DNA of 45,664 bases from Candidatus Tepidiaquacellales bacterium OLB5. Lineage in GTDB: Bacteria; Bacteroidota; Ignavibacteria; Tepidaquicellales; OLB5. Shown piece by piece: positions 31,841 through 37,027 of the stretch. The first letter of the stretch is position 1. The number at the start of each line of letters is the position of its first letter. The position numbers were made by a program, and so were the translations under genes. Below the pieces are notes generated by a model. That model saw only the letters and a list, made by a program, of their open reading frames with translations. It made no database searches and was not told where the DNA came from. The stretch spans positions 1-45,664 of the forward strand of contig LLZO01000003.1 in the NCBI GenBank assembly GCA_001567545.1, in the 5' to 3' direction.

Positions 31841-33718
31841 TTATTTCACCAATATCATTTTTTTGGTATCGGTAAACTCTGAAGTAATTATTTTATAAAA
31901 ATAAATTCCGCTGGAATATTTAACAGCATTCCAGTCCAGCTTATACGAGCCGGCATTAAGCTGGCTGTTTACCAGCACTTCTACTTCCCTGCCTAACATA
32001 TCATAAACAGCAACTTTTACCATCGTATTTTTCGGCAGATCCAAATCTATCTTTGTCGCAGGATTGAATGGATTCGGATAATTCTGGCTGATTGAATAAG
32101 TTTTGGGAATTAAACCGGAAATTGGTTCAATACCGATAACATTGATGCCTGTCATATAAAAATTGATTGTGTCCGGGCTGACACTACCTACAACAACGTT
32201 CTTTTCTGCCTGCCAGTAACCAAACCTGTCACAAATAACCCTGTATGTACCCTGAGATAAATTATTTATATCATACGGGCCGCCGCTTCTGGATATACTG
32301 AATCCCTTGAATTCGTTCCCGTTCATAGCATATACAATTGCGTTCTGCAGCCCGCCTGTTTGAGGAGGAGCCACATAAACACCACCGCTGATAAATGAAT
32401 TACCGCCGGAACCGGTTATAGGATATACATTGAAATTAATATTAAAGATATTATTGTTTGTGTATAAAGTTCTTGATAATACCCAGCTTATTGTACTTGT
32501 TGAAGTTCCTCCATAATAAGTTGGTACAAATGCCGGAGGCATTGCATTTTCATCTTCATCATCCGGATATGCCATAATATCCACACTATCAATGTGCAGA
32601 TTCCTTAGTATATAATCACCGTTAGGCTGGATTGAAGCAGTATCCAGAACAATCACAGCATTTTGCTGCGGGTCATACTTTAATGCCTTTACCATACCGC
32701 TGCTTACAGGAGAACCGCCCGGATATGTAACTTTGCCTGATACAGCAAAAGGAGGACCAAATACACCTCCATTAAGTGTTTTCTGTACTGAACCTGCTGA
32801 ACCGACTGTATACCCCAGGTTGTTTCCAAGAAAGAAAACTGAATTCAGATCTTTTTCTGTACTAGATACCTGTGAATTCCAGATTGATCCGCCGTTTGTG
32901 GTTTTAAGGATGATCCCGTCTTCACCAACTGTATACCCGGTATATGAATCATGAAAATGTACTGAATTCAAATCCTTATTCACAATTCCCTGCTGAACCC
33001 AGGTTTCACCGCCATTGGTCGATTTATATATCACCCCTGAAGAGCCGTATTCATAACCGCCAACTGCATAACCTACAGCATCATTCGGGAAATGTATGCT
33101 TCTGAAATCAATATCAGCTGATTGAGGTGATACTTCGTACCATGAATTACCGCCGTTAATGGTCTTGTAAATTACACCGCTGTATGGCTCAGTCATTTTT
33201 CCGCCTGCAATAAAACCGGTTATGGGATTTCGGAAGTTAACAGAATTGAACTTATTCCCATACATGCTTACAAACTGAAGCTCCCAGTTGCTTCCGGCAT
33301 TAGTAGTTTTAACAATTTTGCTGTTATAACCAACTGCAAACCCGGTGTTAAGGTCTGCAAAATTAACAGCAAGCAAAGCGGATTGATTCAAATCCAACCA
33401 GCTTATTCCGCCATCTGTTGTTTTAAAAACCGTACCTTCACAAATATAACCGGTAGTAATTGTTGAAAAGTGTATTGATGAGCCGCTGAATGCATTGGAA
33501 ATTACAAGCCAGTTTGTACCGCCATTCATTGTTTTAAGGATAATTCCATTGCCTGACATAAAGCCGGTATTGACGTTAACAAAGAATACGGACTTCAATA
33601 CGTTTTCTGTGCCTGATTGTAAAGGATACCAGCCATTTTGAGAAATGAGGCGGCCGGGCATAACAAACAAAACACATATAATCCAAATGAATATAATATG
33701 TATGTTTTTATTTTTCAT
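31841..33718 (-). CDS. YCF48/BNR beta-propeller protein with carboxypeptidase-regulatory-like domains and T9SS CTD
   Basis: Repeated KTTNGGxxW motifs and a QNYPNPFNP...KKMILVK tail. Confidence 0.88.
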   Translation of the reverse strand: MKNKNIHIIFIWIICVLFVMPGRLISQNGWYPLQSGTENVLKSVFFVNVNTGFMSGNGIILKTMNGGTNWLVISNAFSGSSIHFSTITTGYICEGTVFKTTDGGISWLDLNQSALLAVNFADLNTGFAVGYNSKIVKTTNAGSNWELQFVSMYGNKFNSVNFRNPITGFIAGGKMTEPYSGVIYKTINGGNSWYEVSPQSADIDFRSIHFPNDAVGYAVGGYEYGSSGVIYKSTNGGETWVQQGIVNKDLNSVHFHDSYTGYTVGEDGIILKTTNGGSIWNSQVSSTEKDLNSVFFLGNNLGYTVGSAGSVQKTLNGGVFGPPFAVSGKVTYPGGSPVSSGMVKALKYDPQQNAVIVLDTASIQPNGDYILRNLHIDSVDIMAYPDDEDENAMPPAFVPTYYGGTSTSTISWVLSRTLYTNNNIFNINFNVYPITGSGGNSFISGGVYVAPPQTGGLQNAIVYAMNGNEFKGFSISRSGGPYDINNLSQGTYRVICDRFGYWQAEKNVVVGSVSPDTINFYMTGINVIGIEPISGLIPKTYSISQNYPNPFNPATKIDLDLPKNTMVKVAVYDMLGREVEVLVNSQLNAGSYKLDWNAVKYSSGIYFYKIITSEFTDTKKMILVK

Positions 33719-34012
33719 TTTTTCCTCAATTATAAAATTCTGGTAAAAACTGGTAGTATGGATTTAATATCTATAACTACCCATTCATACGTAATTTAAC
33801 AGTAATTTACAAAAATAAAAGCACAAAAATAAATATCACCGGTTAAACTAACTGCAAACCACTTAAACTGATAAAAAGCATTAAAATACTCTAAAATTCA
33901 AAGTTTTTCAAAGATTTTCTGATTTCAAATAATCAACAATAATAAAATGAATATAAAAAACAGGCTGATTATCCCGCTCAATGAAAATTTAATTTTAAAT
34001 TCCATGGCTGTA

Positions 34013-34841
34013 TTATTTAATTTTAATAAATTCTTCCAAAGTTGATGCTTTCTCCCAGTATGTATTGAACAAGTCTTTCATATGCCCTGCATAATCTGAA
34101 TTTTTTATGATAAGATCTGCCTGTTTATGTTTCGGAACGTTTTTTATCTGCCGATAGATTTATAAAAACATTTTCTGTATCAAAAATTGAAACATTTGGT
34201 ATTTTAAAATCAGCAAGTTTTACTTTTTCACCGCCTTTTTGAAATAATTCACATGCTGCTATCAATTCATCGTTCAGATCTTTATCTCCGTTGACCTGGT
34301 AAATGGATCTTATTATACCGCCTTTTTTAATGAAGTTCTGCGCATCCCGGCTAAGTTCTTCAACTACAACCCTTCTTGGGCTGTACATACCCAGTATCTC
34401 TGACTTTGAAGCCAATACAAGCTCCATATACCTGGCTACGCGGTGTTTGTTGAAGCCCCGGATAAGCTGTATGTTTTTATCCGGTGTATCTGTTTTTGCA
34501 GATTCACTTTTATAGATCTGCTGAAGCTCTCCGAATGTTTCATTCAAGCTGGAAAGCTTGCTGTTAAAACTTTTTTTATAATCGCTGATAATTTTATCAA
34601 GAATTATCGCAGGGTCTATTATCTGGTAGTTAAGAATTGTATTGGTCTCAATTTCGTTGCAATATCCTTTATCAACAAATGATTTCAGAATATCATATAT
34701 CGAGTTCCTTATGATCTTCGCATCTTTGGCAATTTCTGATGCACTCATAGGGTTACCGCTTAGCAGTACTAAAAGTACTTTGGATTCATATTCCTTGAAC
34801 CCGAGCGACTTAAGTTTTTCTATTAAAAATTCCTTATTCAA
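34013..34841 (-). CDS. TrmB family transcriptional regulator (apparent +1 in T6 at 34140-34145)
   Basis: LKSLGFKEYESKV, ASEIAK..I.RNSIYDILKS wHTH. Corrected tail is ...MKDLFNTYWEKAS..IK*. Confidence 0.87.
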
Positions 34842-34895
34842 TATTGCTGTAGTTTAAAGCTACTGCAATATAAAATATATTTAAACTATTGTCAA
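34842..34895 (-). promoter_or_regulatory. Sigma70 promoter of the TrmB gene with an overlapping palindromic operator
   Basis: TTGACA (34895-34890), 17 nt, TATATT (34872-34867). A 29-bp imperfect palindrome tattgctgtagtttaaagctactgcaata spans 34842-34870. Confidence 0.7.
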
Positions 34896-34923
34896 GTCCT
34901 ATAATTAACTGGTTCGGTTAATT

Positions 34924-34953
34924 AAAAAAGCAGCCATAAGTTGGCTGCTTTTT
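34924..34953. terminator. Intrinsic terminator (usable in both directions)
   Basis: aaaaagcagcca-taagt-tggctgcttttt. Confidence 0.85.
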
Positions 34954-35254
34954 ATAAATAGCTAGGTCTAACAGAGGGCGATAAATACTTAGCGCAGCTT
35001 CCCTAACTGCAGTGATCACAATTGTTTCTCCCGCCCTTCAGAAGAGATCAATGAATCAAGACAGAGGCTGCTGCGCTTTATAATCTAAACAAAATTCAGA
35101 TGCTAATAAGTTCAAACCGGGGTTAATGCAGATCCATTATATTACCTCCGTTGACGCCTTTGGAACTTGACGTTAACCCCGGCAACAACACCAGCAAGAG
35201 CTTTTAAAGTACCTTTTATATATGCTTAAACACTTAAAGAACAATTTAAATTTC
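34924..35254 (-). ncRNA. Candidate structured non-coding RNA of unknown family
   Basis: GC-rich patch in an AT-rich spacer, two long hairpins with G-U pairs favouring the minus strand, an upstream promoter-like site and a downstream terminator; no long ORF. Confidence 0.6.
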
Positions 35255-35593
35255 TCAGGTAAAAATAGTTTATAATTCAATAAATGCCAAAGATTTTTTA
35301 AATTGTTTGTTAAAAGCTGTTTTTTATTATTTTTTGGTAATTATGATTAATAAATGCTGAATTTTAAATTTTTTTAATAATATTATATGACAATAATCCT
35401 GTTTTGTTAAACAGATAAAATTTAAATTTATGTAAAATACTGTTTAGGCATAGATTTTTAAATGGTTTTGTTGAAACAAATTTTCAATATTATGAAGTTA
35501 TTTAATTAAATTTTTGTCTATTTATTAAAACCAAGGCTTTAAAAGTTATAATCAAACATTTAAAAAATTAAATTTTAAATTAACCATTAAAAA

Positions 35594-37027
35594 ATGCGGG
35601 AATCAAAGCTAACAGAAATGGTAAAAGGCATAAGCCCGGCTGAATTCAGAAAATTCGGTGAATTCCTGAACTCCCCCTACCATAATAAAAGCAGAAAAAT
35701 AATCCAGCTGTATGAATTGATCAACTTTAATTATGATGAGTTTGATGCCAATGTAATTACAAACGAAAAAATCGCCAAAGCTATTTTCAGCGGTGAAGGT
35801 GATAAAGATCAGAATGTAAGAACACTTATCAGCAGCTTTACAGCGCTGCTTGAGGAATTCCTTATTATCGAAGAGCTGAATCAGAATCCGCTGCACGGCA
35901 AAACTTTCCTGCTGAAATCCCTGAGGGACAGGAACATTCTTAAAACCTTCGACATGGTTTCAAAAGAAATAACTGATATACAAAAAAAAGATTTCAACAG
36001 GAACACTGATTATTATTACAACGAGTTTTCCTTTAAAGAAACATGGCTTAATTACCACGGCGAAGATCTTGACATGGACCTTGATAAAAGCTACCAGGAA
36101 ATGAGCAATAACGCTGATTATCTTTTTATTGTCACTAAGCTTAAAATTCTTAATACTGTTATAAGCAGGAAAATACTTTCCGGCATTACGGTTTACAAAC
36201 AATACTGGGCAGTTGAAAATATACTGAAATATATCGAAAAGAATATTGATGACATCGAGACAAATCACCCGATAATTTATTCAGAATACAAAATACTTAT
36301 GATGGTGCTTGAACCCGACAGGGTTAAACATTTCCACGATCTTGAAAAACATGTATTCAACAACATATCTAAATATAACGAAGAAGAGCTTGAACAGGTT
36401 TATTATTCATTAAGCAATTTCTGCGTGAATAAAATTGCGCTGGGAGAAGATAAATTCATACACGAACTTTACAAGATACATTCCAATTTCGAAAAAACCG
36501 GCTTTTACTCTAAGAATAAGAACCTGCAGTATACTGATTTTATCGGGGTAATTATCTGCGGATTAAACATAAAGAATATTTCATGGGTTAAACATTTCTT
36601 TGAAACATACAAAGGCAATATTGCAAACGAAGTAAAACGCGATACCATAAATTTATCATCTGCCCTAATTGCGTTCCATGAAAAGAAATATAAGGATTGT
36701 ATCGGATATTTAAGCAAAGTAGGTTATAAATTCACTTATTTTTACCTCAAGTCAAAAGAAACACTTATTAAATCATATTATGAGCTTGATGAAATAGAAT
36801 CACTTGAATCTGTTATTGATGCAACCAAACATTATCTCAAAAGGCATAAAGAGCTGCTGTCAATCCATTATGACAGGTACATACTTTTCCTTAATTATGT
36901 AACCAATCTCACAAAACTTGATAAAAAACAAAAAGCGGAGCTTAAGATACTGATGAAGAAGCTGGATGAGAACAGGACCACCATTGCAAGGGAGTGGCTG
37001 ATCGAAAAAATCATTGAAATGAAATAA
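35594..37027 (+). CDS. Uncharacterised all-helical 477-aa protein, possible wHTH plus TPR-like regulator
   Basis: Long clean ORF; N-terminal SKL..ISPAEFRKFGEFLNSPYHN motif; helical-repeat-like C-terminal region. Function is inferred only. Confidence 0.7.
   Translation: MRESKLTEMVKGISPAEFRKFGEFLNSPYHNKSRKIIQLYELINFNYDEFDANVITNEKIAKAIFSGEGDKDQNVRTLISSFTALLEEFLIIEELNQNPLHGKTFLLKSLRDRNILKTFDMVSKEITDIQKKDFNRNTDYYYNEFSFKETWLNYHGEDLDMDLDKSYQEMSNNADYLFIVTKLKILNTVISRKILSGITVYKQYWAVENILKYIEKNIDDIETNHPIIYSEYKILMMVLEPDRVKHFHDLEKHVFNNISKYNEEELEQVYYSLSNFCVNKIALGEDKFIHELYKIHSNFEKTGFYSKNKNLQYTDFIGVIICGLNIKNISWVKHFFETYKGNIANEVKRDTINLSSALIAFHEKKYKDCIGYLSKVGYKFTYFYLKSKETLIKSYYELDEIESLESVIDATKHYLKRHKELLSIHYDRYILFLNYVTNLTKLDKKQKAELKILMKKLDENRTTIAREWLIEKIIEMK

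Follow-up and report, generated by a model that had tools for sequence, protein, structure and literature searches.

A structured RNA family confined to one lineage of Ignavibacteria, probably a stand-alone small RNA gene beside a TrmB-family regulator gene

We analyzed a 45,664-nucleotide (nt) stretch of DNA from the Ignavibacteria genome Candidatus Tepidiaquacellales bacterium OLB5 (contig LLZO01000003.1, positions 1 to 45,664; hereafter the window). The element under study is an RNA gene on the minus strand, upstream of a gene for a TrmB-family transcription regulator. Read in the direction of transcription, the locus contains an A/T-rich block, a promoter, a leader with a boxA-like element, two hairpin domains joined by a linker, a tail and an intrinsic terminator, followed by a second promoter and the regulator gene (Table 1). 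We found that the RNA gene is apparently expressed and that the RNA is a previously uncatalogued family, seen among the genomes searched in only a single family-level lineage of Ignavibacteria. A model that read the sequence without database searches had proposed a stand-alone structured non-coding RNA at this place (the original prediction), and this proposal is supported by the promoter, the terminator, covariation, the lack of an Rfam family and transcript contigs that are confined to the locus.

The core of the family is domain 2, for which the covariance-model match spans 35081-34982 with 105.8 bits. Its closing helix pairs AGCGCAGC (35077-35070) with GCTGCGCT (GCUGCGCU; 34998-34991), and its elements follow in the order P1, P2 (CUGU/GCAG), a 2x2 pyrimidine internal loop, P3 (UGAU/AUCA), P4 and P5. 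The apical helix UCUUCUG/CGGGAGA is rich in G-U pairs and encloses the loop AAGGG, and the apical sequence GAAGGGCGGGAGAA (35039-35026; GAAGGGCGGGAGA) is invariant. Both the closing helix and the apical helix with its G-U pairs had been placed correctly from the sequence, and the fold agrees with them. The inner UGAUC/GAUCA helix of the original prediction is present, but fold and covariation describe it better as UGAU(U) at 35058-35054 with GAUCA at 35017-35013, followed by AUUG/CAAU.

Covariation among homologues, suggested as a check when the RNA was first proposed, is strong for domain 2. In alignment A4, with 28 distinct domain-2 sequences, 94.3% of cells pair, against 33.7-58.2% when the partners are slid. 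Compensatory changes were found in 19 of 33 pairs, and none of 500 shuffles attained any of five measures. An earlier set of 23 sequences had given 97.0% of cells paired and compensatory changes in 14 of 30 pairs. Covariation extends to 12 of 13 pairs in P1 and to all five in P4; P2, the 2x2 pyrimidine loop, P3, P5 and the apex are nearly or fully invariant. The P1 sequence is wholly replaced in G028 and L080 with pairing retained, which speaks for selection acting on the RNA. Three genomes (L009, L012 and L013) have two copies of domain 2 in tandem.

We also considered that there is no RNA gene and that a small protein-coding gene or DNA-level protein sites explain the conservation. Two short open reading frames (ORFs) overlap the locus, one of 35 amino acids (aa) at 35173-35280 and one of 33 aa at 34918-35019, and the domain-2 P1 sequence GCAGCAGC loosely resembles GCAGTAGC, the half-site of a palindrome in front of the regulator gene. 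However, the helix substitutions are compensatory, indels are not multiples of three, the 35-aa ORF begins inside the promoter and the region is covered by discrete metatranscriptome contigs. The tiny ORFs that follow GGAGG in domain 1 are not the same in all genomes and are lacking in some, and a mini-ORF at this position was rejected for that reason. We regard a non-RNA origin of the conservation as improbable in the extreme.

The minimum-free-energy fold of 34920-35260 recovered both domains and the terminator (-98.3 kcal/mol, z = -2.79, equalled by 1 of 100 shuffles). Domain 1 is closed by the 10-bp helix that had been read from the sequence, CCGGGGTTAA (CCGGGGUUAA) at 35182-35173 with TTAACCCCGG (UUAACCCCGG) at 35126-35117, and the fold reproduces it. 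The domain-1 structure is moderately supported, with weaker covariation than domain 2: among 13 sequences (alignment A3), pairing is seen in 87.8% of cells and compensatory changes in 4 of 18 pairs, and 10 of 500 shuffles attain the covariation score. The conserved loop GGCGUCAACGGAGGUAA (35158-35142) resembles a Shine-Dalgarno sequence, and the loop CAAACGGAGGUAA is retained on wholly different stems in L014 and L075. Domain 1 is present, reduced or absent depending on the locus, which makes it an optional module that some family members lack. In L049 and L072 it is reduced to (U/A)CGGAGGUAA immediately before domain 2.

Table 1 Features of the RNA locus and of the adjoining regulator gene (positions in the window).
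Feature	Position	Strand	Basis or remark
A/T-rich promoter-upstream block TTAACAAACAATTTAAAAAATCTTTG	35288..35313	-	exact pattern match; 3' end is the -33/-35 TTTG
TTTG promoter element	35291-35288	-	20-nt spacer, then TATTTTTA at 35267-35260
-10/-7 element TATTTTTA	35260..35267	-	sequence reading and conservation
boxA-like element of the 5' leader, TGTTCTTTAA = UGUUCUUUAA	35234..35243	-	sequence reading
Domain 1 hairpin	35117..35182	-	fold and alignment A3
Interdomain linker	35078..35116	-	variable in alignments except AAUUUUGUU just before domain 2
Domain 2, family core, long hairpin of ~100 nt	34991..35077	-	covariance model and alignment A4
Spacer/tail AAGUAUUUAUCGCCCUCUGUUAGACCUAGCUAUUUAU	34954..34990	-	single-stranded in predicted folds
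Intrinsic terminator, AAAAAGCAGCC-loop-GGCUGCUUUUU and U tract	34924..34953	-	sequence, fold
Minimum transcript extent	34961..35231	-	stand-alone metatranscriptome contigs, 252-271 nt
Sigma-70-type promoter TTGACA (34895-34890)-N17-TATATT (34872-34867) and palindrome	34841..34895	-	outside the RNA; promoter agrees with the consensus at 11 of 12 positions
TrmB-family transcription regulator gene	34125..34841	-	Pfam PF01978, E = 1.6e-15

Downstream of domain 2, the tail carries CGCCCU (CGCCCT) at 34980-34975, which is complementary to the loop sequence AGGGCG at 35037-35032, as had been pointed out before. Pairing between tail and loop lies beyond a covariation test because the loop is invariant. 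As a structural model, the tail segment is a candidate seed or switch, and its pairing with the loop would form a putative pseudoknot. GCCCTC was found in the tail of 13 of the 27 unique loci, and CU-rich stretches take its place in other lineages. The strong terminator of the original prediction was reproduced by the fold at 34953-34924, with a stem GCAGCC/GGCTGC, flanking A/U pairs and a U tract. All loci examined have a hairpin and a U tract at this position, with stem sequences that are unrelated between genomes. We folded 18 loci: in 13, the hairpin of domain 2 forms together with a terminal one before the U tract, with an unpaired, often CU-rich spacer between them, and in the other five (L002, L005, L007, L009 and L072) the cut ended before the terminator. 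No antiterminator pairing was seen in the minimum-free-energy folds of these 18 loci.

The promoter of the RNA was found where the original prediction had put a TTTG-N20 promoter of the Fibrobacteres-Chlorobi-Bacteroidetes (FCB) type, and a promoter scan gave an equally good sigma-70-type alternative (-35 TTGGCA at 35290-35285, N17, -10 TATTTT at 35267-35262). The upstream block and the promoter together, TTAACAAA..AAAAATC-TTTG(N)C-N17-(C/T)TAT(T/C)TTT, are kept in 16 of the 27 unique loci, divergent metagenome members included. Across these 16 loci the 17-nt spacing to (C/T)TAT(T/C)TTT is constant and the leaders downstream vary in sequence and length. The block looks like an UP element or a site for a binding factor. 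Transcription of the RNA would start near 35255. A weaker copy of the block, TCAACAAAACCATTTAAAAATCTATG, with two mismatches, lies on the minus strand at 35449-35474, still within this intergenic region and 160 nt further upstream. Besides this site, the OLB5 genome gave only four matches to the block, with three mismatches each.

The boxA-like element, also located as predicted (35243-35234), matches the box ACGTTCTTTCAACAA (ACGUUCUUUCAACAA; contig C36) in the 16S leader of the same genome. Its core GTTCTTT (GUUCUUU) was found in the leader of 9 of the 27 loci, so the boxA reading is plausible for part of the RNA family only. The background of GTTCTTT is 0.18 per kb per strand genome-wide. 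The loci are related, so the count does not amount to a formal test. The boxA-like sequences of L014 and L075 are GGUUCUUUCAAC and GGUUCUUUUAAU. Upstream of that 16S gene (contig C36, minus strand, about 7847), a TTGACA-type rRNA promoter precedes the leader with this boxA; the 3' end of the 16S gene reads GGATCACCTCCTTTCTAAAG, with a tRNA next in the spacer.

We next turn to expression. In total, 20 runs from 10 studies contain the RNA stretch, and four of them were aligned to 33800-36200. Three metatranscriptomes from two studies each gave a whole contig confined to the RNA: 34961-35231 in X12 (271 nt, depth 3), 34965-35227 in X11 (263 nt, depth 15.4) and 34973-35224 in X13 (252 nt, depth 6.67); one study produced X11 and X13, another X12. 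The flanks had no cover in these three runs, which is no evidence of silence, except for a 187-nt contig (depth 2.8) of X13 in the TrmB gene. Small metatranscriptomes, of 49-99 million letters, were enough to assemble the RNA. Together with the promoter and the terminator, the confined contigs are in line with an independent transcript. A transcript of about 330 nt had been expected; contigs of 252-271 nt do lie on the RNA, but contigs do not show where a transcript truly ends. The fourth run, X8, which is labelled transcriptomic, is uninformative on transcript limits because its 6.2-kb contig from a strain variant spans the whole region. In this variant, the linker at 35078-35107 holds 6 of the 11 substitutions and 7 of the 8 indels, and domain 1, domain 2 and the tail have none.

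We then compared the RNA with known families. The original prediction could not match it to transfer-messenger RNA, RNase P, signal recognition particle RNA, 6S RNA or common riboswitches, and had suggested an Rfam search that included the 6S models. Rfam 15 (4227 covariance models) gave no match at the gathering threshold in the whole window. In E-value mode, 34800-35650 gave nine matches, all with E >= 0.7, and the alignments of the three best lie mainly on the terminator hairpin. The same search of five divergent loci found nothing on the RNA. The 6S (RF00013) and 6S-Flavo (RF01685) models had no match in the window or anywhere in the OLB5 genome with E up to 1. A full-text search of the literature, as far as the texts were accessible to it, found no paper describing an Ignavibacteria non-coding RNA. 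The RNA has what is generally looked for in a trans-encoded small RNA (sRNA): its own promoter, an intrinsic terminator, and substitutions that are compensatory, not codon-like.

Homologues were collected from Ignavibacteria, as had been suggested, and after removal of duplicates 27 unique loci remained, some of them from metagenomes. Among the genomes searched with covariance models, the RNA was found only in the family of OLB5. In the OLB5 genome itself (389 contigs, 93% complete) the locus is single-copy. BLAST gave 75-81% identity over the structured part within the genus and nothing convincing in the sister family. With the domain-2 covariance model R1, 20 of 29 other genomes of the family were positive, 17 of the 20 in the genus and the others in three further genera. 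The RNA thus occurs in 4 of the 9 genera of the family and was not found in the other 5. No match was found in 86 genomes of the sister family with R1, or in 141 genomes from 25 other families of the class with the broader model R2. These figures refer to genome samples searched with stricter Infernal filters, and an absence here means no match in the genomes covered. A pattern scan of genome contigs gave 17 loci, all titled as Ignavibacteria or Ignavibacteriales metagenome-assembled genomes. A scan of metagenomes gave nine loci, eight of them real; the ninth, L078, was rejected as a high-GC chance match that the covariance model did not hit. Viral contigs gave no match. Weak BLAST matches to the promoter region in the sister family (L021, L022, L025 and L026) were dismissed as chance AT-rich matches inside coding sequence.

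This distribution bears on the possibility that the RNA is a functional analogue of 6S or another stable housekeeping RNA associated with polymerase or ribosome and expressed at a high, rRNA-like level. In favour of such an analogue, the OLB5 genome gave no 6S match, the A/T-rich block upstream of the promoter and the boxA-like leader are arranged as for rRNA, and the RNA assembles from small metatranscriptomes. However, a housekeeping RNA should be more widespread than one that is not found in a 97% complete genome of the same genus (G004), in 5 of the 9 genera of the family or in the other families searched in the class. The module number also varies, and the folds show two independent hairpins and a terminator, with small domain-2 internal loops (the 2x2 loop included), not the single 6S-type rod closed by its 5' and 3' ends around a large central bubble. 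We consider this analogy very unlikely.

The gene downstream of the RNA encodes a regulator of 238 aa, which is truncated at the C-terminus relative to its counterparts of 274-277 aa and bears a weak resemblance to TrmBL2. Similarity to relatives ends at about 34140, where the strain-variant contig of X8 has one base fewer, so the copy in the window looks frameshifted near its 3' end or carries a one-base assembly error. The original prediction had placed a promoter of its own for this gene past the RNA terminator, and TTGACA-N17-TATATT, the palindrome and the TrmB-family gene indeed follow the terminator in 26 of the 27 unique loci. The palindrome ATATTGCAGTAG-N7-CTACAGCAATAT (34871-34841, minus strand; 12+12, one mismatch here; family form TTGCAGTAG-N7-CTAC(T/A)GCAA) reaches from the -10 element, which it overlaps, to the TTG start codon. 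Because of this overlap, it is probably an autoregulatory operator. It is conserved ahead of orthologues throughout the order, also where the RNA is missing. A search of the OLB5 genome for further sites, as a regulon or an RNA-promoter site would have, gave the TrmB gene as the only good one.

TrmB orthologues are 69-88% identical among genomes that carry the RNA. TrmB-family matches with E up to 1e-20 were found in 103 of 116 genomes of the order, a tally that includes one unpublished genome (G099). The regulator is one of several paralogues, with as many as 8 matches in a genome at that limit; the secondary matches listed have about 42-56% identity, and in the OLB5 genome the palindrome occurs only at the copy beside the RNA. 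In G004, the TrmB gene (81% identity) directly follows fmt and there is no RNA. Orthologues with the same promoter and palindrome and without the RNA were also found in other genera, and several of the best-matching TrmB genes from genera that gave no RNA match have the same palindrome. The G004 orthologue indicates that the RNA is an add-on that is unnecessary for expression of the regulator. A search for the RNA at 11 RNA-less TrmB loci with the filters of the covariance model off gave a best E of 0.078, which was merely the palindrome.

Given this neighbourhood, the RNA might be a cis-acting attenuator leader of the TrmB gene, in which a ligand or protein bound to domain 2 would set termination against read-through, the boxA might favour read-through and the TTGACA promoter would be basal and autoregulated. 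In line with this reading, the RNA adjoins a TrmB orthologue in the same orientation at 26 of 27 unique loci, divergent members included, and its upstream neighbours differ. Domain 2 is conserved like an aptamer, with invariant internal loops and apex and covarying outer helices. A terminator lies directly downstream of it, and tandem domain copies are known for riboswitches too. However, a complete conserved promoter and an operator-like palindrome separate the terminator from the gene, and the gene occurs with the same promoter and palindrome where the RNA is missing. The terminator stems are wholly different between genomes that share a constant domain 2, and the folds contain no antiterminator. 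The transcript contigs stop short of the TrmB gene, and one locus (L019 in G028) has a different gene after the RNA, which is short-chain-dehydrogenase-like, with the TrmB orthologue at the contig edge. We therefore judge an attenuator to be unlikely.

Other neighbours are less constant. Upstream, the window has a divergent ORF of 477 aa (35594-37027, plus strand) with no Pfam or NCBIfam family. In most relatives it is replaced by a gene for a conserved secreted protein with a sorting tail of the type IX secretion system (T9SS), on the same strand as the RNA. In L011 and L018 (G006 and G013), short repeat words such as AAGGTGAGTTAGTAA and GGTGAGTTGGTGAGTTGGTGAGTA lie between this gene and the RNA, upstream of domain 1, and such words recur in the OLB5 genome (near 15985 of contig C175). 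On the other side of the TrmB gene, downstream of it in the window, 31841-33718 (minus strand) encodes a 625-aa protein with BNR/YCF48-like repeats, CarboxypepD_reg and a T9SS C-terminal sorting domain.

Taken together, our preferred reading is that the locus is the gene of a stand-alone sRNA that probably acts in trans or as a decoy by displaying invariant purine-rich loops. The RNA itself is probably abundant, about 300-330 nt long, and the founding member of a new lineage-restricted family. In the mechanism that we propose, the conserved promoter with its A/T-rich upstream block would drive the RNA, and the boxA-like element in the leader may recruit Nus factors as in an rRNA leader, sparing the untranslated transcript premature termination and aiding its folding. 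The RNA folds into one or two domain-2 hairpins, with domain 1 added in part of the genus, followed by the single-stranded spacer of the predicted fold and the terminator, and probably accumulates as a discrete species. It could then act through the Shine-Dalgarno-like hairpin sequences GAAGGGCGGGAGAA and ACGGAGGUAA, which may bind a pyrimidine-rich RNA or an RNA-binding protein as their partner and so titrate it. A decoy or sponge would fit the varying module number. The CU-rich spacer might serve as a base-pairing seed or as an internal competitor for the loops. The adjacent autoregulated TrmB regulator may be functionally coupled to the RNA, for example in a shared circuit, and would not need it for its own expression.

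Several observations weigh against this sRNA reading. A same-strand TrmB orthologue follows at 26 of 27 loci, as a cis leader would show. The 11 loci that lack the promoter block lie close behind the gene for the secreted protein with a T9SS sorting tail, and judging from this arrangement the RNA could be a 3' untranslated region product there. The P5 helix and the loops are invariant, which puts their pairing state beyond the reach of covariation. Assembled contigs give no strand, true ends or expression level and are a weak hint. The possible partners Hfq, CsrA and RRM_1 were not found in the OLB5 genome (G000), which at 93% completeness does not prove their absence; for CsrA (PF02599), control genomes gave matches. 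Finally, no extended complement to the invariant loops was found in the OLB5 genome with up to two mismatches. The domain-2 loop had 17 such matches, scattered and one of them the locus itself, the domain-1 loop had one, the locus itself, and the 12-mer of the tail had 162. Long complements to loops and tail were accordingly set aside, with no convincing target candidate among them.

A more specific form of the decoy reading, which would make the RNA a new class of decoy regulator, would have it expressed by rRNA-type signals and its Shine-Dalgarno mimics, ACGGAGGUAA and GGGCGGGAGAA, presented on rigid hairpins and titrating the free anti-Shine-Dalgarno tails of ribosomes or an RNA-binding protein, with the CU-rich spacer as an on/off competitor and the TrmB regulator in the circuit. 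We offer it as a speculation with a small chance of being right. The 16S 3' end of OLB5 is canonical (CACCUCCUUUCU). Shine-Dalgarno use in this genome is low, with GGAG upstream of 9.3% of 1751 long ORFs versus 2.1% of control windows.

Ignavibacteria are common in bioreactors, sludge and sediments, and RNA-based regulation in them is almost uncharted. The locus offers an RNA family with covariation, expression evidence, a modular build and a fixed, autoregulated TrmB-family partner, and the RNA could already be submitted to Rfam as a new family. Its boxA-like leader, variable modules, Shine-Dalgarno-like loops and fixed partnership with a regulator gene are unusual for a lineage-restricted sRNA. 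It could provide an entry point to post-transcriptional control in such bacteria; the usual RNA chaperones Hfq, CsrA and RRM were not found in the 93% complete OLB5 genome. If true, a decoy that mimics Shine-Dalgarno sequences would bear on the tuning of translation initiation in the Bacteroidota/Chlorobi/Ignavibacteria group.

Among known systems, the RNA shares with CsrB, RsmY and RsmZ a stand-alone transcript with its own promoter and terminator, and repeated hairpin modules of varying number with conserved GGA in purine-rich loops (ACGGAGG, GGGAGA). It differs from them in having no sequence or covariance-model similarity and in a genome where a CsrA gene was not found. Its modules are of about 100 nt with conserved internal loops, not short GGA hairpins, and number only one to three. 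GGA occurs at only two to three sites, in the domain-1 loop (ACGGAGG) and the domain-2 apex (CGGGAGA), and GGGAGA is predicted to be partly helical.

In 2010, Weinberg et al. reportedly found Chlorobi-1 and similar sRNA motifs of Bacteroidota and Chlorobi by comparative genomics, with hairpins, a conserved promoter, a terminator and no known function. The RNA described here is likewise a lineage-restricted structured RNA with hairpins, promoter and terminator. However, its structure and sequence are unrelated to any Rfam 15 family, none of which matches it off the terminator even at E = 0.7, and its fixed TrmB-family neighbourhood is particular to it.

Terminator riboswitches likewise combine invariant loops and covarying helices with an intrinsic terminator, a specific gene on the same strand and tandem copies. 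Unlike them, the RNA is a single long hairpin without a multi-helix junction, no antiterminator appears in the folds, and a conserved independent promoter lies between the terminator and the gene. The gene exists without the element and encodes a transcription factor, not a metabolic or transport protein. Compared with an rRNA leader, the product of about 300 nt is not rRNA and the box is limited to 9 of 27 loci, but the GUUCUUU(N)A box matches that of the 16S leader in the same genome, and an A/T-rich block precedes the promoter in both.

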